A stretch of DNA of 64,000 nucleotides from Terriglobia bacterium. Lineage in GTDB: Bacteria > Acidobacteriota > UBA6911. The notes beneath the pieces were generated by a model, which was not told the origin of the DNA, ran no database searches, and saw nothing but the letters and a program-made list of their open reading frames with translations. A program made the translations under genes and the position numbers. The stretch spans positions 16,327 through 80,326 of the forward strand of contig JAIQGI010000014.1 of assembly GCA_020072565.1 (NCBI GenBank), read 5' to 3'. Below are positions 18,949-46,017 of this stretch, piece by piece (position 1 is the first letter of the stretch; every line of letters starts with the position of its first letter).

Positions 18949-19024
<76 letters not shown>

Positions 19025-21531: not shown

Positions 21532-21607
21532 GGGCGCCTAGCTCAGCTGGTAGAGCACTGCGATCACACCGCAGGGGTCACAGGTTCGAGTCCTGTGGCG
21601 CCCACCA
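21532..21607 (+). tRNA. tRNA-Val (anticodon CAC)
   Basis: The sequence folds as a cloverleaf. It has a gggcgcc acceptor, a D-arm (gctcagctggtagagc), an anticodon loop atCACac, a T-arm (acagg-ttcgagt-cctgt), and a discriminator a followed by CCA. Confidence 0.85.
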
Positions 21608-22922: not shown

Positions 22923-25352
22923 TCAGCGTCCGCTCGGCCCATGGAGCTTGCCGAGCAGCGTCAAGGCTCTGCTGAGGTTAGCGCGCGCGTCGCTGAAGTC
23001 GGGCTTAATGCGGAGAGCCTCTCTGAAGTGCGTCGCAGCCTCCTCGAGCCGGCCCCGGCCTGCGAGCGCGACTCCCAGATTATTGTGGGCCTCCGCGGAT
23101 CCCGGCTCCGCTTTGAGCACCTCCCTGTACTGCAAGGCCGCTTCGTCGAGCCGTCCCAGCCCCTGCAGAACCTGTCCGAGGTTGTAGCGAGCCCCGGTGA
23201 AGTCCGGCTTGAGCCGCAAGGCCGCGTTATACTGTGTCACCGCTTCTTCATGGCGGCCCAACGCCTGCAGGGCATTGCCCAGGTTGAAGTAGACCCCGGC
23301 GATATCCGGCTTGAGCCGCAAAGCCTCGTTGTATTCCTTGATCGCATCGCTTTGACGGCCCAAAGCCAGCAGTGCGTTGCCCAGGTTGTTATGAGCCTCG
23401 GCGTAGTCCGGCTTGAGTCGCAAGGCCTCACGGTATCGCGTTACTGCCTCATTGACACGCCCCATGCGCTGCAACGCGCTGCCCAGGCAGTTGTAAGCCT
23501 CTGCAAAATCCGGCTTGAGCCGGACAGCCTCCATGTGTTGTGCCGCCGCCTCGTCGAGACGACCCATCTGCTGCAAGGCGCTGCCGAGATTGTTGTAGGC
23601 CGTGGCGTAATCGGGCTTGAGCTTCACAGCCTCCCTGAGGTGAATTACTGCCTCGTCAAGCCGGCCCAACCCCTGGAGAGCTGATCCCAGATTGCCCTGA
23701 GCCTCTGCGGAACCCGGCTCGTGTCGGAGCGCCTCCCGGTACTGCGCCGCCGCCTCTTCGAGCCTGCCCTGTCCCTGCAGGGCGTTGCCGAGGTTGTAAT
23801 AGGCCCCCCCAAAGTCCGGCTTGAGCCGCAGGGCTGCCTGGTATTGGGTTATGGCCTCGTCGAGCCTGCCGAGCCCCTGCAAGGCATCACCCAGGTTGTT
23901 ATGGGCCTCGGCGTAGTCCGGTTTCAGCCGCAAGGCCTCTTGATATTGTGCCAGCGCCTTCTCTACCTGTCCCCTTGCCTGCAGGGCGTTGCCCAGATTG
24001 TTGTAGGCCATCCAGCACGACGGATTGCGGCTGATCGTGACGCGATAGAGTGTTTCAGCGTTGGCGTACTGACGGCTCTGGCTCCAGGTGGGAAAAGCAA
24101 GCGCGCCTCCCAAAACAACTGTCATGACTGCCGCGGCCGGCTTGGGCTGGAAGCTCCATCGTCGGAGAAGGCTCGCCAGGCCGGCGGTAAACAGGGCTAT
24201 GATCCCTATGCTCGCCAGATACTGGAAGTGATCCGCTACGAACGAGTATCGGAACGGATACACGTTGAAAAAGCCCAGCGCCGGAAAAAGCGTCCCGCAG
24301 AAAAACAGCATCGCCGCCAGCGGCGCCCGGGAACGCATCCGCCACAGTGCCGCCAGCAACACGGCCACAACCAGCGGGTAGAGATATTGCCACCACACGC
24401 CCTGGCTGATCTGCCACCGCGGGTAAATGAAGGTCAGGTTCGCCGGCCAAAACAGCTTGCCGAGATAGAAACAGACCACCCGCCCGGCAATCAGGCCTCG
24501 TTCGATCAGCGTGAACTGGAATTCCGCACCCTGGGCTCCGATCAGCGTGCGCTCGACCAGGGCGGTAAGGAGGCCCCCGGCCGCGCCGATCACGAACCAC
24601 GGCATCAGCGGCGCCACGTCGCGGCGCCCGCTCAGATGCCCGCGTTGCCACCAGAAGATCACCAGCAGCGCCGCCGGTAAGGTGGCCGTGACGGTCTTGC
24701 TTAGCAAGGCCAGAACGAAGAGGGCCAGCGCCAGCGCATAAATGCGTTTTTGCCTGGTTTTGTCGAAGTGGAGATAGGCCAACACCGCAACCAGATAGAG
24801 CACGCCCGAGAGCGTGTTCTTCAGCTCGCTGATCCACGCCACGGACTCCACCTGAATGGGATGCAGGGCGAAGATCACCGCCGCCAGCCAAGCCCCCGGC
24901 ACGCCCAGGCGCCGCAGGATCACCGCCACCAGAAACGCCGCAAGCGCGTGCAGGATGATGTTGACCAGGTGGTAGCCCAGCATGGCGTCGCCCCAGAGTC
25001 TATGCAGGAGCCAGAAAGCCGAATGGGTGACCGGATAGTATTGCTGGGTCGCGCCGAGATCGAACCAGATGCGCCACAGACCTTCTGCGGGGCGCAAATC
25101 GCTGCGGGTGATATGGCGGTCGTCATCCCAGAGCATCCTGCCACGCCAGGCCGGATGATAGGCCGCCAAGGTCGCCAGCAGCAATCCCAGCAGCAATAGC
25201 CACGCTCCCCACCCGCGAGTTGCGCGACGGGCAGTAACTTGCTCCGCTGGCCGTTGCTGCTCCCTGCCCGGGCTGCCCGCCGACTGAAATGGCTTGCGTC
25301 TCTTGCCGGTCACGTTTGTCTTAATTTTCTGGAATCTCTTCGGATTGCTCAT
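22923..25352 (-). CDS. TMTC-like membrane protein: polytopic N-terminal domain plus C-terminal TPR array
   Basis: The 809-aa product has ~10 TM helices in the N-terminal half, typical of GT-C/PMT-like TMTC proteins. About 12 canonical TPRs follow (A..YNNLGNALQ..GRL.EA...Y..AL.L.PD). Confidence 0.75.
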   Translation of the reverse strand: MSNPKRFQKIKTNVTGKRRKPFQSAGSPGREQQRPAEQVTARRATRGWGAWLLLLGLLLATLAAYHPAWRGRMLWDDDRHITRSDLRPAEGLWRIWFDLGATQQYYPVTHSAFWLLHRLWGDAMLGYHLVNIILHALAAFLVAVILRRLGVPGAWLAAVIFALHPIQVESVAWISELKNTLSGVLYLVAVLAYLHFDKTRQKRIYALALALFVLALLSKTVTATLPAALLVIFWWQRGHLSGRRDVAPLMPWFVIGAAGGLLTALVERTLIGAQGAEFQFTLIERGLIAGRVVCFYLGKLFWPANLTFIYPRWQISQGVWWQYLYPLVVAVLLAALWRMRSRAPLAAMLFFCGTLFPALGFFNVYPFRYSFVADHFQYLASIGIIALFTAGLASLLRRWSFQPKPAAAVMTVVLGGALAFPTWSQSRQYANAETLYRVTISRNPSCWMAYNNLGNALQARGQVEKALAQYQEALRLKPDYAEAHNNLGDALQGLGRLDEAITQYQAALRLKPDFGGAYYNLGNALQGQGRLEEAAAQYREALRHEPGSAEAQGNLGSALQGLGRLDEAVIHLREAVKLKPDYATAYNNLGSALQQMGRLDEAAAQHMEAVRLKPDFAEAYNCLGSALQRMGRVNEAVTRYREALRLKPDYAEAHNNLGNALLALGRQSDAIKEYNEALRLKPDIAGVYFNLGNALQALGRHEEAVTQYNAALRLKPDFTGARYNLGQVLQGLGRLDEAALQYREVLKAEPGSAEAHNNLGVALAGRGRLEEAATHFREALRIKPDFSDARANLSRALTLLGKLHGPSGR

Positions 25353-25398: not shown

Positions 25399-26459
25399 CG
25401 AGAATTCCCTTTTAACGAATGCAGCCATTGAATCTACAACACTTGTGTTTCATAAGACACAACAAGCTCGCAAAAAAGTAGCGGAAACGCAACCCCCGCG
25501 CTACCCAAACTGACAGGATTCGCATAGAACACTAATTGCGATCGCAAGAGAAACGTTAGCGGCTGTGGCCTGCTTCCAGAGGGGATACAGTCTGTCGAGG
25601 CTGCCGCGATCTTGTATGTCGCCCGTGTCACGATTCACATCGCAGGGCGCGCCAAGCGCAGAGTTGGGCGACATCTCCACGGACGGGACCTCTGACCCGC
25701 TTCGCGGAATTTATATCTACGAATGCGTTATACAGCCTGTGACCGAGCTGAACTGTTGCCCGCTTGGTTTCTGAGCGCAAAGGCGTCCAGGCTGGCGTCC
25801 ACTTTTTGGCTGATGCGGTAGATCCGCTTGCCTTCATGGCAGAGTTGCGGAGAGCTGGGGTCGAGCAGACCGAGAACTTTGAATCTTGGGATTGAATAAA
25901 ACCCCCCGGATTGCTTTTGATAACAGGCCATTTCACCACCTACCATGAGCGCCGTCGAAGCCCGGGACGCGTCCACTCGGATGGTCAGTCGGCAGGCCAG
26001 ACAAGTTGCCCGTGCGGCCCAACTTCCAGAAAGTGAGCAAAAAGACTTAGGGATTTTACGTACGGACCTGAGGACCCGGGAGGAGGGCAGACGAGCGGAG
26101 GCTTGGCGCGGGCATTGATCGAATACGCGGCTTGTCCTCCCTATTCGGAATGACGGGGTGTCGGCGCCGGCGTGCGCCAATCGGGATCTGTCCCTGTCAG
26201 TTGCCTCAGAATCACCTTGGTTTCATTAATCAGCCGATTGCTCCGACCTTTTGCGGTTACGGCAATTAACATCACAAAGCGCCCCTCCTGTTGTGATTCA
26301 CGCCAACCCCAGCCGGGGAATCCTCTCTCGAGCAGTTTCTACTCAGGCTGGTGGGTAAGGGATAGGTTTATTCCTGCTTTTGAGCCGAGAAAATCCTGAG
26401 GTGGATTGGTAAAAGCTCCGGCGTGTTTCCTACGTGGTGGTGGGTCGAAAGAGGGAGTG

Positions 26460-27824
26460 ATGGGGATAGCATCAATTGAACAAATTGAATGCGAGCCTCG
26501 TATCTATATGCATCTCTGTGCCAGCGAGGTGTCTGTGTATCCAGCTGTCGAGTCGCCCCAAATGGATGCGAGATTTGAATGTGACCTTCGAAGCTTTGTC
26601 GGCAAATATACGGCAGTGTGGCTGAGCTCAGCCGTAGGGACTCCCACCTCAGCAATGACATATACCGCTTCGGCGCAGCGCAGAAACGAGCGCAATACAG
26701 ACCTCTTGATCGACTCCATGGAAAAGGAATTGCGGAACTACCCGTCACGGCCGCGGGAGCAGTCAGGCTGGCGTGAGCGCATTTTCGTAACACTGCGCCA
26801 GTTCGGCACGAAATCCTTCCGGTTTCCCGACAGCCATTTTGACGTTATCTTCTCTCCTGACTATTTTGCGGTTACCAGGGCTTTCGCCCGCCAGGCCCGC
26901 GCATTTGACGAGAGCATCGAGACCGACGCGCTCGCTCAAGCGCTTCGCAACGTCTGGGTCATGAACTGTTTGCAGATGTTCCTGGGCCGGCGGCCTTCGC
27001 TTTCGCCATCAGTTTTCGCTTACAGCATGCTCTATCCATACACCGATAACCACCTCGACCAGCCGAAACTGCCCTACGAGACGAAACGGATGGCGTGCCG
27101 GCGCTTGGGACTTCGTCTTTCAGGCCGGAATATCGAGCCTTGCGATGCGCATGAAGCTGCCGTTTTCCGGCTCGTTGAGATGATCGAAGGCGAATACCCG
27201 CGCGCTACTTCCCCGGAGGTCTACTCGAGTCTTCTGGCGATCCATGCCGGGCAGGTGAAAAGCCTGGGCCAGCAGCACACGCCCTTCGCTCCGGATGAAA
27301 CAACCCTCCTGCGGATCAGCGTTGAGAAAGGAGGCTCCTCTGTCCTCGCCGACGGCTGGCTTGTGGGGGGCGAAATGAGGAGAGCGGAGGCCGATTTCTT
27401 CTTTGGTTTCGGCGTCATGCTTCAGCTGCTCGACGACCTGCAGGACCTACCCGATGACCGCAATGCCGGGCACTGGACTTTATTCACGCGCACGGCCTCG
27501 GCGGAATGCCTGGACCGTCACACCAGCCAGCTCTGGCATTTCGTACACAACGTGCTCGATTCAAGGGGCTGCCTCGCCGATTCCCACGGTCTCGAACTGC
27601 GAGATCTGATCCGCCGCAACAGCACGATACTGTTGCTACGGGCCATGGCAGAAAGCGCAGGCTACTATTCCGCCGATTATGTGCACCACATGGAACGGTT
27701 TTCCCCTCTGAGTTTTGCCTTCCTGCGGGACCGTCGCGTAGCCATCGAAAAGAGATTCGCCAGAATCTGGCCACCGCTGGCGCGCCGGCGAAAGCTGCGC
27801 TCGATCTTCGATCTCCTGGGCTGA
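26460..27824 (+). CDS. hypothetical protein with Asp-rich LQLLDDLQDLPDD motif (possible divergent isoprenoid-synthase-like fold)
   Basis: The ~455-aa product, taken from the internal Met MGIASIEQ, is helical. GVMLQLLDDLQD resembles the second Asp-rich motif (FQxxDDxxD) of trans-prenyl synthases, and a degenerate TDNHLD lies ~125 aa upstream. No confident family assignment was made. Confidence 0.45.
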   Translation: MGIASIEQIECEPRIYMHLCASEVSVYPAVESPQMDARFECDLRSFVGKYTAVWLSSAVGTPTSAMTYTASAQRRNERNTDLLIDSMEKELRNYPSRPREQSGWRERIFVTLRQFGTKSFRFPDSHFDVIFSPDYFAVTRAFARQARAFDESIETDALAQALRNVWVMNCLQMFLGRRPSLSPSVFAYSMLYPYTDNHLDQPKLPYETKRMACRRLGLRLSGRNIEPCDAHEAAVFRLVEMIEGEYPRATSPEVYSSLLAIHAGQVKSLGQQHTPFAPDETTLLRISVEKGGSSVLADGWLVGGEMRRAEADFFFGFGVMLQLLDDLQDLPDDRNAGHWTLFTRTASAECLDRHTSQLWHFVHNVLDSRGCLADSHGLELRDLIRRNSTILLLRAMAESAGYYSADYVHHMERFSPLSFAFLRDRRVAIEKRFARIWPPLARRRKLRSIFDLLG

Positions 27825-27941: not shown

Positions 27942-28238
27942 TTACTTTATCGCATGCAATGCCTGACGGATTGCCTGAACATCGACCAACCGGCCTGAGC
28001 TGAACCGATAGAGGATGCTCGAAATTAATGTTTGATACGGAAGCCCCTCATCGGCGGCTCTTTTCCTCAGGTTTTCGAGCACAACCTCACTGAGCCGCAG
28101 GCTGATGGTTTTCGTCTTTCCTGCGGCCCGCAGAATTCGCTCTTTCTCGGCGGGCTCTACCGGCAAAAACTCTTCTAAAGAGTCTTCTATTTTTTGTTCA
28201 TACCTGTCAAGTTTTGGCCTACTTCGCTTTTTTGCCAT
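27942..28238 (-). CDS. brnA: BrnA-family antitoxin (RHH/CopG-like)
   Basis: A C-terminal segment (ISLRLSEVVLENLRKRAADEGLPYQTLISSILYRF) is typical of BrnA. The gene overlaps brnT by 20 nt, the classic toxin-first brnTA layout. Confidence 0.65.
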   Translation of the reverse strand: MAKKRSRPKLDRYEQKIEDSLEEFLPVEPAEKERILRAAGKTKTISLRLSEVVLENLRKRAADEGLPYQTLISSILYRFSSGRLVDVQAIRQALHAIK

Positions 28239-28485
28239 AACGCCTCTGAAGCTTGCGAGTGGGATAGATCGTTTTGAGGATCATGTTGCCGTCGGAATCC
28301 CAAAGAAACGGCACCGCATGAACCCGCTCGCCCAGGTTGACGACGAGTATTTTTTGATTCTTTCTCACGCGGTGCTCGAGAATATCAAGAACGCGCCCGG
28401 ACACAATTTCGACGATAACATCCTCAAAACGAACGTCCCTTGCGGCTGCCAGTTTTTCATTCTTGGCTTCGTCCCAGACGATCAC
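28219..28485 (-). CDS. brnT: BrnT-family toxin (DUF497)
   Basis: The 88-aa product begins MIVWDEAKNEKLAAARDVRFEDV..., a typical BrnT N-terminus. It has an apparent GTG start. Confidence 0.65.
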   Translation of the reverse strand: MIVWDEAKNEKLAAARDVRFEDVIVEIVSGRVLDILEHRVRKNQKILVVNLGERVHAVPFLWDSDGNMILKTIYPTRKLQRRYGKKAK

Positions 28486-28502
28486 ATGCTAATTGTGCCC
28501 AT

Positions 28503-28514
28503 ATGTATATACAT
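28503..28514. promoter_or_regulatory. perfect palindrome atgtatatacat upstream of brnT (candidate BrnA operator)
   Basis: The 12-bp perfect palindrome lies ~20 nt upstream of the brnT start. It sits in the divergent intergenic region shared with the giant helicase gene. Confidence 0.35.
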
Positions 28515-28737
28515 TGTCAACGATGTTCGGGACGTATCGGCCCAGGCGATCCAACCACGAGTACGTTTGTTCGGGCTCTAGATGAAACCTATGCGCTGTG
28601 CACGCATGTATCGGGTTGCTATGCTAATTGAATCGGAGCACATACAGATGCACATCCAGGCAACAAATCGCCGGTCGGCCCACGGCCGTGCGTCGGATTT
28701 GACGCTGACTGGTGCCTGACGGTACTATGGCCGCGCG

Positions 28738-31700
28738 ATGGAGATATTGAGATACAGCGACCTGGATACGCGAGGGCTGGAGCAGTACGTGGAGCACGCC
28801 ACGGCGCTTCTTCGGGAAGGCGACTTCCGCGGCGCAGACGCCCGCAAAATGGTTGGTTCGCCGTTTTATAGGGCGCGGTTGAACGACAGGGACCGCCTGT
28901 TGTTCCGCTTCGTCGCTCACGGCGGGAAATCCCATCTCGTGCTGCTCGAGGTGATCCGGAATCATGCGTACGAAAAATCCCGCTTTCTCAACGGCGCCGT
29001 GGTTGATGAAAATAAATTGGTGCCGATCCCGGACGCCGCGCAGGTTCCGGCGGGCGATCTCCTGCCGTTGAGTTTCATCAATCCGAAAATCCAGCGCGTC
29101 CATGTGCTGGACAAGATCCTATCACTCGACGACTGGCAGGAGGCTGCGTATGTGCAGCGGCTGCCATTGATACTGATCGGTTCGGCGGGGAGCGGCAAGA
29201 CGGTACTGACGCTGGAGAAGATGAAGCAGATGTCCGGCGATTTGCTGTACGTCACGCATTCCGCCTACCTGGCGGAGAATGCCCGCAGGCTGTACTACGC
29301 CTCGGGCTACGAGAACGAGGCGCAGAACCTCAGCTTCCTGTCGTTTCGCGAGTTCGTGGAAACCATCCATGTGCCGCCGGGGAGCGTGGTGGATTTCCGG
29401 ATTTTCGCACGCTGGTTTGCCCGGCATCGGCAGGCTTCGGGCCTGCGCGACGCCCATCAGCTTTTCGAGGAATTCAACGGCGTGTTGACCGGTTCGCCGG
29501 TCACGACCCCGTATCTGTCGCGCGCGGACTACCTGGCCCTGGGCGTGCGCCGTTCCATTTTCACCGGCGACGAACGGCCGCTGGTGTACGACCTGTTCCT
29601 CAAATATCTCGACTTCCTCAAACAGGAGGAACTCGCGGACCTCAACCTGCTGTGTTTCCAGTATCACGAGGCCTGCCGCCCGTCCTATGACGCGATCGTC
29701 GTGGACGAAGTGCAGGATCTGACCAATGTTCAGCTCAGCCTGATTCTCAGGACGCTCCGCCATCCGGAAAAATTCATTCTTTGCGGCGATTCCAACCAGA
29801 TTGTTCATCCGAATTTTTTCTCGTGGGCCGCGCTCAAGACCCTGTTCTACGAGAACCGCCTGAAGACCAGCGGCGAGATCATACGGCTTCTCAATACCAA
29901 CTATCGTAACACGCCGGAAGTTACGCGCCTGGCCAATCGGCTGCTGCTCCTGAAGAATGCGCGCTTCGGATCGATCGATCGGGAAAGCCACTACCTGGTC
30001 CGGCCGATCTCGGAAAACCAGGGGCGCGTGGAATTCCTCGCCGATACGGACGCGGTGAAGCGCGAGTTCGACGCACGCACATCCCGTTCCACGCGCTTCG
30101 CCGTGCTCGTGATGCGCCCGGAGGACAAGGAAGCTGCCGGCCGCTGCTTCCGGACTCCGCTGCTTTTCTCCATCCAGGAAGCCAAGGGCCTCGAATACGA
30201 GAACATCATTCTCTTCAACTTCGTCTCAGGATCAGCTGCCGTGTTCAAGGAGGTCACCGAGGGAGTAGAACCCGCGGATTTGAAAGCGGACTTCTCGTAT
30301 GCCAGGGCGAAAGACAAGACCGACAAGTCGCTGGAAGGTTTCAAGTTTTATATCAACTCGCTCTACGTGGCCATGACCCGGGCCGTGCGGAATCTATACA
30401 TCATCGAGCAGGACACCGGGCACCGCCTTTTCCGTCTGCTGGGGCTCGATCTGCCCGGCCGCGAAGTGAAGCTCAAGACCCAGGATTCCTCGGCTGAGGA
30501 ATGGCAGGCCGAAGCGCACCGCCTCGAAATGCAGGGCAAACAAGAGCAGGCGGAAGCGATTCGGCGGCGCATTCTCGAGACGCAGCCTGTGCCTTGGCCC
30601 GTAATTACGCCGGATGGACTGGCGCAACTGGAGTTTGAGGCACTCAATCCGCAAGCCTACAACCGGCAGGCAAAACTGCTGCTGTTCGAGTATGCGGTGA
30701 TGTATTCGGTGCCCCGCCTCTTCCCGAAACTGGCGGCGTTGCAGTTCAACCCGGCGTTCCGTGCTGATTCCGAGCGGGCCGCGATCGAGAACAAGTACAG
30801 CCAGGACTGCCAGGGGGCACATCCGGTTCTGAATCAGAAGATCGAACGCTATGGTGTTGATTTTCGCAACCCGCTCAACCAGACGCCGCTCATGGTGGCC
30901 GCGCGACTGGGGCGGAAAGACCTGGTGCGCGACTTGGTTGCGCAGGGAGCCAACACCCAAGCCCGGGATAACTGGGGACGGGTGCCGCTGCAGATCGCGC
31001 TACGCCAGGCGTATAGCCGGCCCGAATACGCACGGTCGGCTATCGGCGAGGTCTACCCACTGCTTGCGCCGTCCGCGCTCAAGGTGCGGACGGGTGGGCG
31101 GCTCGTGAAACTCGACAGCCATGTCATGGAGTTCTTCCTCCTGCACTCCATGTTGGCGCTGTTTGAAGACGTGGTTCGACGCAAGGTGCAGGTTGCCTTT
31201 CCCGCCTTCGAGACGGGTGATTTTGTGTCCGCCCTGGAGCCGTTCCCCGTAAACGTCATCCCGGAGCATCGCCGCCGCCGTCCTTATTTGAGCGGTGTGC
31301 TCGCGCGCAACGAACTGCACCGCGGCGATCCCGGCAACCGCCAGCTCTTCCTGCGGGTCAGCCACGGGTTCTATGTACCGAATCCGGCGATGGATATCGA
31401 GATCGAGAACGCCTGGATCAATGTGTGCGACCTGCTGCACCTGGACACCATGGACGAAGGCGCCGAAAAGCGCCTGAAAGATCTCCTGGATGTGATGCGG
31501 CACGTCCGAAAACAGGGGCGGCTCGAAGACTCAAGCCGTCTGCGATTTTCTCCGTTTCATAGCACACCCGTTGCGCGTACCCTCGATAGTATTGCCCGCA
31601 AAGTGCGTGGTGAAGACGTGGCTTGGGAAGATGAATGGGAAGCGGCGGATCCACGATCCGGTGCTACGGCTCCCGACGTTCCGTTCCGGCAGGAACCGGC

Positions 31701-32928
31701 TGTAGAGACCGTTTCCGTAGCCACCCCCGCCGAATGGCAGCCGGAGCCGGCGCCATGCGTGCCCACCCAATATGAATTGCCCTTGGAGGATGCCGTGGCG
31801 GAACCGGCGGCAGTGGCAGCATCACCCGCCGAGCCGTCAGAACCCGAACCTATCGACGCTCCCGATGTGGTTCCCGTGGCGGCGGACCCGCTGACAGTCT
31901 CACCGTCGGAACCCGCGCGCCCCCGCGTGGCGGACGCACTGCCCCAACGCGTCGCGGCGATTCCCCAATCCCGTGTGACACCGCGCGGCGCGGAAGGCGC
32001 CGACATGCCTCCACCACTGCCTCCGCTCCTTGACATTGCCATGCCGGCGTACACGCAGCGCGAACAGCAGATGCTGCGGCGATTCGAGTTCCCGTCGTAC
32101 CCATTTCCCGAGGCGGACGCACGTCAGGTGGCCGCGAATCAAGATCGTTTTCGCCCCGCGCTTCTTGGCATAGTCCGAGGGATGCTCGATCCGCAAATAA
32201 AGCAGGAGGTAATTGCCGGCCGGCACAACCACATGGGGTATGCTGCCGCGATCTATATCCTCGCGGGCGCCCGGGATCAGGCGCTTTGGCCGCTATTGCT
32301 GAGGGTGACGATCGATCCGGACCTCGCCCCTTTCCACCTGCGCTACGAAAAATGGCTGGACTTGCCTCGCATCCTGGCCACCGTGGCACCGCAAGATCTC
32401 GCACCCATCATGCGTCTCGGCGCGTGGCGGCCGCTTCCGGGCGCTTCCCGTGGCTTGATCCTCAGAACCTTGGCCTTTCTTTTCTTCTGGAAGCGCACAT
32501 CGCGTGAGAGTGTAGTCCAAACCCTCCGGCAAACCTTCGATGTCGGGATTCCAGCATCGGATCTCGATCTCTGGGACGTCGTCCTGGATGTCTGCTGTAC
32601 CGTGCATCCGCACGAGATGATGGGCTATCTCCGGCGGCAGTTGTCTCCAGCTGTTTGTCGCGGACTTGAAGTGAGTCGCGCGGACCTCGAGAATATGAAC
32701 TTGGTGCCAATGGATAGGGTGCTAGCCGACTCACGCGCCGCCGCCGCCGGACCGATCCGGGGTTGGGAGGACTTTGCCGAGATCGGGCTTGAGGGCGGGC
32801 GCTCCCGTGAAGAGGAATGCGATATCAAAGAAGCCGAGCCTATCCACGCGGCACCGAAGACAGGCCGGAATGATCCATGTCCCTGTGGGAGCGGGCGCAA
32901 GTTCAAGAAATGTTGCGGCGCAGGGTAA
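28738..32928 (+). CDS. 1396-aa multidomain protein: RelE/ParE-like N-terminal segment, SF1A (UvrD-like) helicase, ankyrin repeats, Pro/Ala/Glu-rich linker, unknown C-terminal domain, SEC-C zinc motif
   Basis: Helicase motifs are Walker A GSAGSGKT (aa 148-155), motif II VVDEVQDL, motif III LCGDSNQIV, motif IV NYRNTPEV and motif VI VAMTRAVRNLYII. Ankyrin repeats appear at NQTPLMVAARLGRKDLVRDLVAQGANTQARDNWGRVPLQIAL. The last residues are GRNDPCPCGSGRKFKKCCG, a SecA-type SEC-C metal-binding motif. The N-terminal segment FYRARLNDRDRLLFRFVAHGGKSHLVLLEVIRNHAYE is patterned like a RelE/ParE core. Confidence 0.8.
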   Translation: MEILRYSDLDTRGLEQYVEHATALLREGDFRGADARKMVGSPFYRARLNDRDRLLFRFVAHGGKSHLVLLEVIRNHAYEKSRFLNGAVVDENKLVPIPDAAQVPAGDLLPLSFINPKIQRVHVLDKILSLDDWQEAAYVQRLPLILIGSAGSGKTVLTLEKMKQMSGDLLYVTHSAYLAENARRLYYASGYENEAQNLSFLSFREFVETIHVPPGSVVDFRIFARWFARHRQASGLRDAHQLFEEFNGVLTGSPVTTPYLSRADYLALGVRRSIFTGDERPLVYDLFLKYLDFLKQEELADLNLLCFQYHEACRPSYDAIVVDEVQDLTNVQLSLILRTLRHPEKFILCGDSNQIVHPNFFSWAALKTLFYENRLKTSGEIIRLLNTNYRNTPEVTRLANRLLLLKNARFGSIDRESHYLVRPISENQGRVEFLADTDAVKREFDARTSRSTRFAVLVMRPEDKEAAGRCFRTPLLFSIQEAKGLEYENIILFNFVSGSAAVFKEVTEGVEPADLKADFSYARAKDKTDKSLEGFKFYINSLYVAMTRAVRNLYIIEQDTGHRLFRLLGLDLPGREVKLKTQDSSAEEWQAEAHRLEMQGKQEQAEAIRRRILETQPVPWPVITPDGLAQLEFEALNPQAYNRQAKLLLFEYAVMYSVPRLFPKLAALQFNPAFRADSERAAIENKYSQDCQGAHPVLNQKIERYGVDFRNPLNQTPLMVAARLGRKDLVRDLVAQGANTQARDNWGRVPLQIALRQAYSRPEYARSAIGEVYPLLAPSALKVRTGGRLVKLDSHVMEFFLLHSMLALFEDVVRRKVQVAFPAFETGDFVSALEPFPVNVIPEHRRRRPYLSGVLARNELHRGDPGNRQLFLRVSHGFYVPNPAMDIEIENAWINVCDLLHLDTMDEGAEKRLKDLLDVMRHVRKQGRLEDSSRLRFSPFHSTPVARTLDSIARKVRGEDVAWEDEWEAADPRSGATAPDVPFRQEPAVETVSVATPAEWQPEPAPCVPTQYELPLEDAVAEPAAVAASPAEPSEPEPIDAPDVVPVAADPLTVSPSEPARPRVADALPQRVAAIPQSRVTPRGAEGADMPPPLPPLLDIAMPAYTQREQQMLRRFEFPSYPFPEADARQVAANQDRFRPALLGIVRGMLDPQIKQEVIAGRHNHMGYAAAIYILAGARDQALWPLLLRVTIDPDLAPFHLRYEKWLDLPRILATVAPQDLAPIMRLGAWRPLPGASRGLILRTLAFLFFWKRTSRESVVQTLRQTFDVGIPASDLDLWDVVLDVCCTVHPHEMMGYLRRQLSPAVCRGLEVSRADLENMNLVPMDRVLADSRAAAAGPIRGWEDFAEIGLEGGRSREEECDIKEAEPIHAAPKTGRNDPCPCGSGRKFKKCCGAG

Positions 32929-33340: not shown

Positions 33341-34288
33341 ATGCGATACCGAATCTTCGTGGTGATCGTTTTCTGCTTCTGCATTTTGGCACTGATGTTG
33401 GCGCGATACGACTCATCTCTCAGAGCTGCGTCAACAGGAGTCTCCGGTCCTGCCATCCAGCGCCGCAACTACTCACCGAACACAATCCGCTACTATTTGA
33501 GTACGGTCGAGGATTTCGCCAGACACTTTAAGAAATCTCCGGACAAACTTGGTCCGGATCACTTGCGTTCGTACCACGCCTATCTTCTCAGAGACCGCAA
33601 ATTGGCGGTCGAATCTGTTGTCGGACGTGTAGCCGCACTGCGTTTCTTTTTTATCCGCACCCTAAAGCGTCCAGAGTTCCGAGACGATTTGCCGTATCCC
33701 AAACGGCACAGGAAGCATCCGATCGTTCTCAGCCCTGAGGAAGTGGCAAAGGTGATCAATGCCGCTCGAAGTCTGATGCACCGCGCTCGGTTGATGGTGC
33801 TTTACGGTACAGGCCTGCGCCGGGAGGAAGTTTCCCTGTTAAGAGTTGACAATATCGATAGTTCCCGAATGACGATCCATGTCCAATTCGGCAAGGGAGG
33901 CAAGCAACGGTTTGTTCCGCTCAGCCCCGTGCTGCTGAACACGCTGCGCGAGTACTGGCGTTGGAAAAAGCCCAAAGAATATCTGTTTCCCGGCACACGG
34001 ATCCGGAACGGCAAGATCATGCCGATCTCGGATAAGACTGTCTATCATGCCTGTGTCACAGCTGCGCATCGCGCTGGCATCCGGAAGAAAGTCACCCCGC
34101 ATCTGCTGCGTCACACCTTTGCTACCCATATGCTCGAAAACGGAACGGATATCAGGAGAATCCAGGAGATTCTGGGCCATGGAGACCTGGCAACCACCGC
34201 CAGATATCTGCACATATCGCAAAAACATCTGCAAAGTATCGTGAATCCGCTCGACTCGCTTCCGCTTTCGCCTGTGGACAAAAGCTGA
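33341..34288 (+). CDS. tyrosine recombinase (phage integrase family) of the IS91-family element
   Basis: The catalytic C-terminus is present (HLLRHTFATHMLENGTDIRRIQEILGHGDLATTARYLHI; R..HxxR..Y). The first ~40 aa do not align to copy B, and the conserved LRQ.. segment appears in another frame, so a 5' frameshift or alternative start is possible. Confidence 0.6.
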   Translation: MRYRIFVVIVFCFCILALMLARYDSSLRAASTGVSGPAIQRRNYSPNTIRYYLSTVEDFARHFKKSPDKLGPDHLRSYHAYLLRDRKLAVESVVGRVAALRFFFIRTLKRPEFRDDLPYPKRHRKHPIVLSPEEVAKVINAARSLMHRARLMVLYGTGLRREEVSLLRVDNIDSSRMTIHVQFGKGGKQRFVPLSPVLLNTLREYWRWKKPKEYLFPGTRIRNGKIMPISDKTVYHACVTAAHRAGIRKKVTPHLLRHTFATHMLENGTDIRRIQEILGHGDLATTARYLHISQKHLQSIVNPLDSLPLSPVDKS

Positions 34289-34303
34289 ACACACTGCGAC
34301 GCC

Positions 34304-35509
34304 ATGACGAAACCCCCATTTGAGGTTGCCGACATTGTCCGGGTTCAAGGCCATCGATTCCTCGAGAAACATGGCTCCGGCATGGATTTCGAGCAGGTGA
34401 AAGCGTTCCGCGCCATCAAGGCTTGCCGCACGGCAGCGCTCGGGGGCCACATTGATTATTGTCCCGGTTGCGGTAGCTACGAGAAGAACTCCTTCAATAG
34501 CTGCCGCAATCGCAATTGCCCAAAATGCCAGGCGGGATTGCGTCAGCGCTGGATTGCAGAACGGGAACGCGAAGTCCTGGGCGTTCCCTATTTTCATGTA
34601 GTCTTTTCCGTGCCGCACGAACTCAATGTCTTGGTGCGGGATAATCATCGACTGTTTTACAGTCTTCTGTTTTCGGCAAGTTCGAAGGCCGCCGTGGAGC
34701 TTGCGGCCGACCCCAAGTGGCTCGGCGCCCAGATTGGCATTCTCAGCACCTTGCACACTTGGGGCCAGAACCTGACGACGCATCCCGACATCCACTGCGT
34801 GATTCCGCAAGGCGGACTTGCGCCGGACCACAAAAGCTGGATCCATCCGCGCTACCGATTCTTTCTTCCCGTCAAGGTCTTGTCCAAGGTGTTCCGCGGC
34901 AAATTCCTTCATGCTTTGAGGCGCCTCTACCGCAAGAAGAAATTGCGATTGGTCGGCCCCGCAGCCTGTCTGGAGGATCCGAAGTGTTTTGCGGCACTGA
35001 TCCGACGGTTATACAAAAAGTCATGGGTCGTGTACGCCAAGCCGGCATTCGGCGGCCCCGTGCAGGTGATCCGGGATCTCGGACGCTATACCCACCGCGT
35101 CGCGATTTCCAATCACCGCATTGTAAACTTTGACGGCGAAAAGGTGACGTTTCTCTGGAAAGACTATGCCCATGAAAGCAGGCAAGGGGCGATGACGTTG
35201 GAGGCGACCGAGTTTTTGCGCCGGTTCTTTTCGCATGTACTGCCGAAAGGATTCGTTCGCATTCGGCAGTTCGGGTTTCTGGCGAATCGTTTCCGTGTCA
35301 AACGCGTTACGCTTTGCCCCGAGCTGCTTGGCGATCCCGTGGAGCCCAGCCAGACCCTGGAACCGGAACCTGATCCCGAGCTTCCAGAACCAACTGCCTG
35401 GAGATGCCCGCGGTGCGGCACCAGAGTCATCAGGGTGCGGATATTCACGGCCGGAGATTGGTCTTCCCGAGGAGGCTTTACTGATGGACAAATGTGTTCA
35501 GCTTATTGA
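34304..35509 (+). CDS. IS91-family transposase (HUH Y2 rolling-circle)
   Basis: An N-terminal zinc motif (CPGCG...CRNRNCPKCQ) is followed by the HUH motif HTWGQNLTTHPDIHCVIPQGG and the Tyr motif [15 protein letters not shown]. Confidence 0.75.
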   Translation: MTKPPFEVADIVRVQGHRFLEKHGSGMDFEQVKAFRAIKACRTAALGGHIDYCPGCGSYEKNSFNSCRNRNCPKCQAGLRQRWIAEREREVLGVPYFHVVFSVPHELNVLVRDNHRLFYSLLFSASSKAAVELAADPKWLGAQIGILSTLHTWGQNLTTHPDIHCVIPQGGLAPDHKSWIHPRYRFFLPVKVLSKVFRGKFLHALRRLYRKKKLRLVGPAACLEDPKCFAALIRRLYKKSWVVYAKPAFGGPVQVIRDLGRYTHRVAISNHRIVNFDGEKVTFLWKDYAHESRQGAMTLEATEFLRRFFSHVLPKGFVRIRQFGFLANRFRVKRVTLCPELLGDPVEPSQTLEPEPDPELPEPTAWRCPRCGTRVIRVRIFTAGDWSSRGGFTDGQMCSAY

Positions 35510-36142: not shown

Positions 36143-38047
36143 TCAGAGGTGCGGAAGCCGCTCCCGGGTCCAGGTCTGAATCAGTTCCGCCAGTGGCCCA
36201 AAGATGCGAACCGCCCCCATAAAGAAGAGTTGGGGGTCGCGATCCTGGTAGGCTTTCTCCAGCCAGTCGATGACCCGGTCTCGTTCTCCGAGGCCTGCGT
36301 ACATGCAGATTAGGCTTTTTGCCGGCACATATCCCCGCTCGAGTCTCGCCAGCAACCCGTGGAGCATAGAGGTCGCGGTGTCCAGGTGGCCCGCCCTGGC
36401 GTGCGCATGTCCCAGATATCCAATGGAAAGCGCATCCGGGGAAATCGCAGCGGCCTTTTCGAAAGCCTGAACCGCCGAGTCAAATCGTGAGTGCATCAGT
36501 TCCGACCACCCCAGGACGTACCAGGCCTGGAGAGCGTCCGGGAACAGATCCAGCGTGGTGCGTGCCTGTTGTCGGGCCCACTCGTACTCCTCCACAAACA
36601 GATGGATCCAAGCCGCATCCGCGTTGACGTCGAGAGATAGCGGATCCAAATCCAAGGCAAGCTTCGCCTCCGCAATAGCTTTGGCACGATCTCCCGCGAC
36701 TATCGCCAGAAACACGGCATAGTTTACGTGAGCGCCTTCATCGCTCGGATTCAAGTCAATGGCGCGGAGGGTCTCCGCCTTGCAGGTGGCCAAGTCCCAA
36801 TCGTGCAGCCAACTGACCCACCCCAGAACCCAATGAGCAACGCTCAGGGCATCATCCAGAGCGATGGCCTTCAGGGACGCCTTCTGGGCCCGGGGATAGG
36901 CCTCGGGGCCGGGCAGGTGTCCCCAGAAGCCCAGGAGAGAGTAGCATAGGGCCATGTGAGCATACGCCGGTGCGTGGGTGGGATCCTTTTCCAGCGCCAG
37001 GTGGAGACATTGCAGGCCTTTGTGAAACCCGTCCAGTGAGCGCTGGCCCAGGTAATGGCGGGCCTTGAGATAGGCTACTTGTGCTTCCGGGTTCACGGGG
37101 CGCTGGCGAGAGAGCCGCCCGACCTCGGCCGTGCTCAAGGTCACCTGCGCCGCCTCAGCAATGTCCCGCGCGACCTGCCCCTCCATAGTGAGGATGTCAC
37201 CCATCCGGCATGAGTAGGCTTTGGACCAGAGGTGCTGCTCGGGCATGGTTTGCACGAGCTGGGCAGTAATGCGGATGCTGTCCCCATCCACGAGCACGCA
37301 TCCCTCGACGACAAGGTCTGCCTTTAAATCACAGGCGATTTCCGCAAGCGTCTTGCGCGTGCCCTTGAGATGGAGCACGGATTGGCGGGAAATCACGCGC
37401 AACGTGCTCACGTTTCCCAGCTCCGTGGTCAGCGCGTCGGCCACAGCGTCGCCGAAGAAATCCTGTTCCGGATGACGGTTCAGATTCTCGAACGGCAGCA
37501 CTGCGAGCCTGGGTGGAACGATGAGCACCTGCTCGACCGGCGCGATGAAGCGATAGCCACGGTGATGCAGCGTCTCGATATACCTGGGTTTGCGGGCACC
37601 ATCCCGAAGCGCATCCCTCAACCGATTCACCGCGCTGTTCAGGCTGTTGTCGAAGTCGACGGAAACGCCGTCCGGCCAGAGCCGCTGCCTCAAATCCTGG
37701 CGCGTCACAAGTTCGTCGGGATGCTCCAGCAGTGCCACGAGCGCCTCGAAAGATTTGCCCTGGACTTGGATCCGCAGGCCGTTTTTACGCAGCTCACCCG
37801 CAGGCACATCGACCTTGTAGGGGCCGAAGGTAAACCGTTTGACACGGGTTTTTGCCTGACTCACAGTGGATTCACCATAGCGCCCACCGCAATCCGGAGT
37901 CAAGCCTCCTGAAATCATCGTCTTGCGTCGTGAGAAACATTCAAGAAGGAAACAAGAATCACAGCCAAGGATTGTGGCGCAAAATCGGTCTCGGTAAGAC
38001 GTTCCATATGAAGCGCAGAATGCCGGATACGGCCCCAAGCGGCACAT
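36143..38047 (-). CDS. winged-helix (OmpR/CadC-type trans_reg_C) DNA-binding regulator with C-terminal TPR domain
   Basis: The N-terminal segment FGPYKVDVPAGELRKNGLRIQVQGKSFEALVALLEHPDELVTRQDLRQRLWPDGVSVDFDNSLNSAVNRLRDAL...YIETLHHRGYRFIA is a canonical OmpR C-terminal wHTH. It is followed by ~400 aa of TPR-like helices. The true start is probably internal (MISGG.. or later). Confidence 0.7.
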   Translation of the reverse strand: MCRLGPYPAFCASYGTSYRDRFCATILGCDSCFLLECFSRRKTMISGGLTPDCGGRYGESTVSQAKTRVKRFTFGPYKVDVPAGELRKNGLRIQVQGKSFEALVALLEHPDELVTRQDLRQRLWPDGVSVDFDNSLNSAVNRLRDALRDGARKPRYIETLHHRGYRFIAPVEQVLIVPPRLAVLPFENLNRHPEQDFFGDAVADALTTELGNVSTLRVISRQSVLHLKGTRKTLAEIACDLKADLVVEGCVLVDGDSIRITAQLVQTMPEQHLWSKAYSCRMGDILTMEGQVARDIAEAAQVTLSTAEVGRLSRQRPVNPEAQVAYLKARHYLGQRSLDGFHKGLQCLHLALEKDPTHAPAYAHMALCYSLLGFWGHLPGPEAYPRAQKASLKAIALDDALSVAHWVLGWVSWLHDWDLATCKAETLRAIDLNPSDEGAHVNYAVFLAIVAGDRAKAIAEAKLALDLDPLSLDVNADAAWIHLFVEEYEWARQQARTTLDLFPDALQAWYVLGWSELMHSRFDSAVQAFEKAAAISPDALSIGYLGHAHARAGHLDTATSMLHGLLARLERGYVPAKSLICMYAGLGERDRVIDWLEKAYQDRDPQLFFMGAVRIFGPLAELIQTWTRERLPHL

Positions 38048-45898: not shown

Positions 45899-45942
45899 TG
45901 GACTCTACGAATTCGGGGTGTCTGTAACTCGTTGAAAAGATT

Positions 45943-46017
<75 letters not shown>

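Follow-up and report, generated by a model that had tools for sequence, protein, structure and literature searches.

Prenyl diphosphate synthases and class I terpene synthases bind two Mg2+ ions through a first aspartate-rich motif and the third through a second motif, or through an NSE/DTE motif, and ionization of the allylic diphosphate then initiates catalysis (PMC7484799, PMC5939612). There is precedent for terpene synthases having evolved from prenyl diphosphate synthases (PMC7484799), and non-canonical class I enzymes have proved recognizable by their fold alone (PMC5939612, PMC11234867). The subject of this analysis is a gene located in a 64,000-nucleotide stretch of DNA from a Terriglobia bacterium (assembly GCA_020072565.1, contig JAIQGI010000014.1, positions 16,327 to 80,326), referred to below as the window. 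The product of this gene is probably soluble and acts on its own, as a Mg2+-dependent enzyme of the class I isoprenoid-synthase fold; it would be derived, very distantly, from the trans-prenyl diphosphate synthases and would not, in all likelihood, condense isopentenyl diphosphate (IPP).

26460–27824, + strand: gene for the isoprenoid-synthase-fold protein (preferred start ATG 26460, 454 aa)
27822–27824, + strand: stop codon of this gene

The structure predicted for the protein is confident and all-helical (pLDDT 94.6, pTM 0.92), and corresponds to the all-alpha 'terpenoid synthase' helical bundle. All 50 of the matches listed in a Foldseek search share this fold, weakly (best E value 1.4e-3). 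Approximately 240 to 265 of 420 residues could be superposed, so that the family carries extra N- and C-terminal helices. No membrane-like segment was found in the window protein (maximum KD19 hydropathy 0.98).

The protein belongs to a large family, with at least 1,504 relatives in a 90%-clustered collection and approximately 1,100 clusters at 50% identity (1,105 representatives, E up to 0.001). The hosts span at least 8 phyla and at least 499 species genomes, and many of the named ones are anaerobic genera; the named groups include Clostridia, Acetobacterium, Prolixibacteraceae, Anaerolineae and Thermoanaerobaculia, and cultured hosts are found in Clostridium, Acetobacterium, Sunxiuqinia and Tissierella. 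Of the 150 representatives listed, nearly all consist of a single domain and have lengths of 400–470 aa. Neither Pfam nor NCBIfam contains a model for the family; the window protein gave no match in Pfam, NCBIfam or PADLOC, and an NCBIfam scan of seven divergent members returned nothing useful. Some RefSeq records carry the names 'class 1 isoprenoid biosynthesis enzyme' or 'isoprenoid biosynthesis enzyme family protein', while most read 'hypothetical protein'. No characterization of the family was found in an incomplete search of the literature.

Conservation was determined for 131 representatives, clustered at 50% identity, that are 29–44% identical to the window protein. Residues are numbered here from the ATG at 26562, an alternative start that is considered below. 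The elements of interest are as follows.

26937–26951, + strand: QALRN segment (Q126, R129 and N130 invariant), approximately 33 residues ahead of motif 1
27021–27059, + strand: first Asp-rich motif (motif 1), YSMLYPYTDNHLD, a D-N-x-x-D variant of the first DDxxD motif
27252–27263, + strand: Q231-x-x-S234 (GQVKS), counterpart of GQxxD in region III of trans-prenyltransferases
27327–27353, + strand: KGGSSVLAD block, counterpart of the diphosphate-binding lysine of K-T-G (region IV)
27411–27458, + strand: second Asp-rich motif (motif 2), GVMLQLLDDLQDLPDD, of the form (L)QxxDDxxDxxxD, as in trans-prenyltransferases

It is apparent that 20 residues are invariant across these divergent members: Q126, R129 and N130 ahead of motif 1; Y154, S155, Y158, P159, D162, N163 and D166 in motif 1; Q231, K256, G257 and S260 in the middle region; and G284, Q288, D291, D292, D295 and D299 in motif 2. 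Every acidic residue of both Asp motifs falls within this set. Conservation of at least 90% was observed for S234, G258, V261, L262, D264 and L287, and a number of aromatic residues (W20, F108, F115, Y154, Y158, F281 and F308) are invariant or nearly so. Judged from the alignment, both motifs lie far beyond chance, and the 20 residues have the character of an active-site-like signature, which may be written QxxRN...YSxxYPxxDNxxD...KGxxS...QxxDDxxDxxxD.

In the predicted structure, the QALRN segment is held in helix 121–140, motif 1 lies at the C-terminal end of helix 149–165, and motif 2 occupies the C-terminal end of helix 274–294 and helix 296–302. The two motifs are thus on different predicted helices, and hhalign places motif 1 opposite the region of the first, and motif 2 opposite that of the second, motif of prenyl synthases. 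R129, in the helix ahead of motif 1, is a candidate diphosphate-binding arginine, as judged from its position relative to region I, and it might stand in for the region I arginine; the QALRN segment falls outside the hhalign alignment, and its role is read from position.

The sequence links of the family lead to the trans-prenyl diphosphate synthases. The Pfam family most often matched was polyprenyl_synt (PF00348), by 7 of 30 members (best 1.4e-4) and by 7 of 111 divergent members (best 4.5e-7). Among the matches listed, which comprise all 11 families for the 30 members and the best 25 of 70 families for the 111 members, it is the only one matched by more than three members in either scan. 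The window protein itself does not reach the Pfam gathering score for polyprenyl_synt and gave no match to it even at E values up to 10, and a phmmer search of PDB sequences with this protein returned only spurious matches to G protein-coupled receptors. When the family profile was compared with PDB sequences, the best match was the farnesyl diphosphate synthase 4f62 (E 0.11), and the octaprenyl diphosphate synthase 3tc1 was also listed. The alignment with 4f62 pairs gQ with GQ, KGGsSVLA with HKTGALIKA, and GfGvlLQllDDLQDleeD with GLAFQVQDDIIDLTSD. In the alignment with Escherichia coli IspA, GQ is matched, the KGG block is opposite HKTGALIRA and motif 2 is opposite GLAFQVQDDILDVVGD.

A target profile for hhalign was built from E. 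coli IspA and five plasmid-encoded polyprenyl synthases, the latter being added because E. coli IspA alone was obtained when the loci were searched for genuine polyprenyl synthases. The alignment of the family with these six synthases (P value 0.0054) extends over 176 columns, from the first motif to T306. It sets IFAYSML..YPYTDN opposite IHAYSLIHDDLPAMDD, and then aligns GQ, QxxDDxxD and the invariant T306, the last with T249 of IspA. The second motif has the (F/L)QxxDDxxD form, with L287 conserved to at least 90% and Q288, D291, D292, D295 and D299 invariant, and it is aligned in 4f62, in IspA and in the five other synthases. For the first motif, the DDxx(xx)D and RRG elements have no match in the family: the first DD faces a gap and RRG faces variable residues. 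The GK...D loop that follows motif 2 falls in an 11-residue gap in the family, and the N-terminal GKxxR region was not aligned by hhalign. Among the basic residues that bind IPP or diphosphate, only the KT-type lysine (K256) is kept. The weak sequence signals and the fold, taken in combination, point to descent from an ancestor resembling a trans-prenyl diphosphate synthase, followed by loss of the IPP-binding elements.

These results bear on several proposals of a first-pass annotation of the window, made by a model that had only the sequence and its open reading frames. It had described an all-helical protein of isoprenoid-synthase-like fold, and both the predicted structure and the weak Foldseek matches agree with this. 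Its suggestion that one segment mimics the FQxxDDxxD motif is upheld, GVMLQLLDDLQDL aligning position by position with (F/L)QxxDDxxD, the second Asp-rich motif in farnesyl- and polyprenyl-diphosphate synthases. The upstream YPYTDNxLD, which it took for a degenerate first motif some 125 aa away, is indeed invariant, yet non-canonical, in the 131 representatives, and its first Asp lies 129 residues from the first Asp of motif 2. The broader proposal of a divergent terpene or prenyl synthase-like enzyme stands with respect to the fold and motif 2, but the canonical first DDxxD, the RRG and the GK loop are missing.

It was of interest, in addition, to examine the genomic contexts of the family. 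To this end, 80 homologue loci were fetched from the species genomes that gave matches, with the phylum taken from the title of each record. They comprise 29 loci from Bacillota, 20 from Acidobacteriota, 13 from Bacteroidota, 8 from Chloroflexota, 5 from Actinomycetota, 2 from Verrucomicrobiota and 1 each from Thermotogae, KSB1 and Melioribacter. Clustering of the neighbouring open reading frames over these loci revealed no conserved partner, a result that fits an enzyme using a universal precursor. The neighbours that appear operonic are unrelated to one another: M29 peptidase, PspC, ketopantoate reductase, DEAD helicase, HD protein, RimK, GNATs, DJ-1, LigD, SRAP, lipoate ligase and ABC exporter.

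Two arrangements recur on a small scale. In several Bacillota the family gene follows, at a distance of 14–129 bp, a heterodimeric ABC exporter pair (ABC_membrane plus ABC_tran; L059, 4729–6618; L070, 6119–7960; L067, 5971–7845), and in one lineage of metagenome-assembled genomes (MAGs) it follows an envelope-stress gene resembling PspC/LiaI-LiaF (L021, 7479–7997; L039, 7067–7603). These adjacencies offer a sparse hint of export or of the cell envelope, too sparse to build on.

Several points weigh against the assignment of the protein to an isoprenoid-synthase-fold enzyme derived from the trans-prenyl diphosphate synthases. The links to prenyl synthases are individually weak and none would stand alone: the hhalign probability is low (6.8%), and no relative passes the Pfam gathering score for polyprenyl_synt. 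That RRG, GK and GKxxR are missing is judged from alignments in which identity is very low, and the family-specific residues Q126, R129, N130, K175 and R214 might provide a different IPP site. Genes for terpenoid tailoring or precursor supply, which would corroborate isoprenoid chemistry, were not found nearby.

If the assignment is correct, catalysis may be envisaged as follows. An all-trans prenyl diphosphate from primary metabolism would bind within the helical bundle, with its diphosphate held by a Mg2+ cluster. D162 and D166 of motif 1 would chelate the metal from one side of the cleft, and D291, D295 and D299 of motif 2, spaced i, i+4 and i+8, from the opposite side. K256 (the counterpart of the KT lysine), R129 and Q288 would help to hold the diphosphate. 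Loss of the diphosphate would generate an allylic carbocation, which could be quenched by deprotonation, cyclization or water, in the manner of a terpene synthase, or by an acceptor other than IPP. A terpene-synthase-like outcome or a transfer to a non-IPP acceptor is favoured over elongation because the IPP elements appear to have been lost and because many aromatic residues are conserved. More tentatively, the family may constitute a new and widespread subclass of class I enzymes, that is, a terpene synthase or prenyltransferase derived from prenyl diphosphate synthases and making a so-far-unknown isoprenoid, possibly one related to the cell envelope.

Two other forms of isoprenoid chemistry must be weighed. 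The protein could be a chain-elongating trans-prenyl diphosphate synthase of unusual sequence, joining IPP to an allylic diphosphate to give a prenyl diphosphate of a particular length. The closest sequence signals, those to polyprenyl_synt, speak for this, and motif 2, with the Q of (F/L)QxxDDxxD and an Asp at +8, matches the prenyl-synthase form and not the NSE/DTE form as these are defined in PMC7484799. The counterparts of GQ and of the KT lysine are likewise retained. However, YPYTDNxLD stands in place of the canonical DDxx(xx)D, there is no counterpart for RRG or for the GK...D loop (the 11-residue gap), GKxxR is unaligned, no member attains the Pfam gathering score and NCBIfam yields nothing. 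The host genomes, moreover, are expected to carry ordinary enzymes of the IspA/UppS type already. An ordinary IPP-condensing synthase is improbable because the family is without RRG, the GK loop and GKxxR, and an elongating enzyme of any unusual kind is considered unlikely.

Transfer of the prenyl group to an acceptor other than IPP (a lipid, an aromatic compound or a peptide) is, as a specific proposal, similarly doubtful. Such transfer by enzymes with the prenyl-synthase fold has precedents in MoeN5, the carbazole prenyltransferase CqsB4 and Ord1, and the retention of the allylic-diphosphate machinery together with the apparent loss of the IPP-site elements would suit it. The ABC exporter pair or PspC/LiaF-like gene that precedes some Bacillota genes is a weak hint of a membrane or envelope substrate. 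Against this, no conserved neighbour supplies or defines an acceptor, and the known examples lie in biosynthetic clusters, whereas the present family is stand-alone in at least 8 phyla. A soluble, stand-alone enzyme of the class I fold that probably does not condense IPP is preferred.

The limits of the gene were also considered. The open reading frame at 26406–27824 on the + strand is real: it opens with TTG and runs for 472 codons to a stop. The 472-aa product given in the first-pass annotation is its maximal translation, and the start at 26460 is favoured over it.

26406, + strand: alternative start TTG (472 aa)
26508, + strand: alternative start ATG (438 aa)
26562, + strand: alternative start ATG (420 aa, the NCBI call)

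The NCBI protein MBZ5496810, from an Acidobacteriia/Terriglobia MAG, begins at ATG 26562 and is 100% identical to the window protein over its 420 aa; an exact-sequence look-up of this version returned no record. The gene calls of ENA/Logan give 454 aa from 26460, and this version is present on at least 24 contigs, every one from a single population with identical context. A sequence encoding CxxEVxVYPA, upstream of 26562, is kept in close relatives, so that the true start should lie at or before 26508; this conservation suggests that the NCBI start is placed too far downstream. The start at 26460 is preferred because a Shine–Dalgarno-like AGAGGGAG sits 4 nt before it, because ENA/Logan calls it and because of the conserved CxxEVxVYPA.

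The genes upstream of the target are on the minus strand, and the target is its own transcription unit. Downstream, the following genes were identified.

27942–28238, minus strand: BrnA/CopG-type antitoxin, 98 aa (Pfam CopG_antitoxin 5.9e-9, BrnA_antitoxin 1.3e-5)
28219–28485, minus strand: BrnT-like toxin, 88 aa, overlapping the antitoxin gene (Pfam BrnT_toxin 2.7e-3)
28738–32928, + strand: helicase fusion, 1396 aa, with a UvrD/AAA_19 superfamily 1 core, ankyrin repeats, DUF1186 and a C-terminal SEC-C metal-binding motif

The BrnA and BrnT genes, which form a type II toxin–antitoxin pair between the target and the helicase, are called likewise in other assemblies. A 158-aa open reading frame at 28105–28581 on the + strand overlaps this pair and is probably spurious. 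The helicase fusion gave weak PADLOC matches to helicases of the GajB, Nhi and AbiO types.

The first-pass annotation had placed the target at the edge of an island, on the same strand as the helicase, and had proposed the two as partners. The shared strand is correct, but two minus-strand genes intervene: the BrnA/BrnT pair runs on the opposite strand, convergently with the target, so that target and helicase are not co-transcribed. The co-occurrence with homologues of the 1396-aa protein that had been suggested as a check did not materialize, as searches by blastp and tblastn of the 1.05 Mb surrounding 81 homologues, which represent at least 8 phyla, gave nothing related to the helicase. That the target is a partner or accessory of the helicase, or the cargo of a mobile or defence island, is thus very improbable and already largely refuted: the two genes do lie on one strand, 914 bp apart, with a tyrosine recombinase, an IS91 transposase, a toxin–antitoxin pair and a helicase with weak GajB/Nhi-type matches nearby, but a convergent gene pair separates them, a helicase relative occurs at 0 of the 81 loci, PADLOC gives no match for the target, no member of the family occurs among 72,556 plasmids or 50,697 phage records, and the two nearest relatives (70–73% identity) reside in unrelated contexts. 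For the window, this constitutes a negative result, in that the target gene does not belong to a helicase or defence module.

No break in GC content was observed at 26.4 kb, and island borders could not be defined from the contigs bearing the 454-aa version, because all represent one population with the same context. At 33341–35509 on the + strand lie a tyrosine recombinase that resembles those of the XerC/integron type (315 aa) and, immediately after it, a transposase of the IS91 family (401 aa; NCBIfam transpos_IS91, 6e-120); this pair is the clearest mobile-element signature in the region. Large tetratricopeptide repeat (TPR) proteins flank the region: one of 809 aa with approximately 10 TPR units (22923–25352, minus strand), and a second of 634 aa with a Trans_reg_C (OmpR-type DNA-binding) domain and TPR repeats (36143–38047, minus strand). 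Genes for tRNA-Ala(CGC), tRNA-Val(CAC) and tRNA-Gly(CCC) were found at 18949–19024, 21532–21607 and 45942–46016, respectively. The tRNA-Val gene, approximately 5 kb upstream of the target, could serve as an integration site.

The non-canonical terpene synthases that ordinary genome mining has missed (classes IB, IC and ID–IF) each opened new terpenoid chemistry, and the present family is larger than most such classes. Few terpenoids are known from the anaerobic genera among its hosts, and terpenoid metabolism has been little explored in such host bacteria as Clostridia, Acetobacterium, Prolixibacteraceae, Anaerolineae and Thermoanaerobaculia. The traces of prenyl diphosphate synthase ancestry that it retains mean that it could be a bacterial case of the transition from prenyl diphosphate synthase to terpene synthase, so far documented in insects and fungi. 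The 20-residue signature and the cultured hosts make the family directly testable. It could open new chemistry through the function proposed for it, but it is not a new kind of system.

Comparison with the described classes places the family as follows. Like the trans-prenyl diphosphate synthases, it has AYSxL...P...D, GQ, K-(T/G)-G and (F/L)QxxDDxxDxxxD in the same order and at similar spacing, together with a conserved Thr after the second motif. Unlike them, it has D-N-x-x-D after Y-P-Y as its first motif, and not DDxx(xx)D; the protein is 120–150 residues longer, with the extra N- and C-terminal helices; and for RRG, the GK...D loop and GKxxR there is either no counterpart or none that can be aligned. 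Nor does the family conform to the canonical class I terpene synthases, in which DDxxD on helix D is combined with (N/D)Dxx(S/T)xxxE on helix H, its own motifs being DNxxD and DDxxDxxxD. With respect to the NSE/DTE triad, the family is acidic at positions 1, 5 and 9, but has no Ser/Thr and no Glu. A weak match to Terpene_syn_C_2 was found in 1 of 111 members (E 0.022).

Class IB enzymes are characterized by the motifs DYLDNLxD and D[YFLW]IDxxED, with six essential Asp residues (PMC5939612). The family resembles this class, represented by BalTS (5yo8) and Bacillus subtilis YtpB, in that a class I fold is hidden from the sequence alone and the genes stand alone. The Y, the D-N and the final D of DYLDNLxD are shared with PYTDNxLD, and three Asp positions of D[YFLW]IDxxED are shared with DLQDxxxD. 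In contrast, the first Asp of DYLDNLxD corresponds to the invariant P159, the Glu of the second motif is variable, and the family protein is 70–80 residues longer. BalTS was not among the PDB sequences matched by the family profile at E values up to 10, whereas prenyl synthases were, and DUF2600/YtpB does not appear among the families listed in the Pfam scans of 30 and 111 members. Assignment to class IB was rejected on the basis of the motif mismatch and the lack of a sequence signal to BalTS or YtpB.

Class ID is defined by the motifs D(N/D), ND and RXXKD at approximately residues 95, 289 and 338, the first two being some 194 residues apart; PeuTPS, the member of this class that has been studied in detail, lies outside a terpene gene cluster, but several homologues of classes ID, IE and IF adjoin tailoring genes, such as those for P450s (PMC11234867). 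Like these classes, which were found by mining structure models, the family consists of hypothetical proteins in which a class I-like fold goes together with new motifs (PMC11234867), and it shares with class ID a similar size (approximately 50 kDa) and a first motif that opens with D-N. Unlike class ID, it has DNxxD and DDxxDxxxD 129 residues apart (DD at +129, not ND at +194) and no conserved RXXKD; the enzymes of classes IE and IF differ from it in size, at 68 and 75 kDa. Assignment to class ID, IE or IF was rejected on motifs, spacing and size, as given in the published descriptions of the three.

The atypical class I diterpene synthases Stt4548 and Sat1646 (7e4m, 7e4o) have approximately 270–290 residues and act on copalyl diphosphate within diterpenoid pathways (PMC9814573). 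No sequence-level similarity to them was detected with the family profile against PDB sequences, and the second motif in the family follows the prenyl-synthase pattern. The head-to-head squalene/phytoene synthases, with two DxxxD-type motifs, were also rejected; SQS_PSY is not among the families listed in the Pfam scans. Taken together, these comparisons indicate, at the level of sequence and, for classes ID–IF, of published description only, that the family fits none of the described classes. It is a good candidate for a new non-canonical class of terpene synthase or prenyltransferase within the known superfamily.

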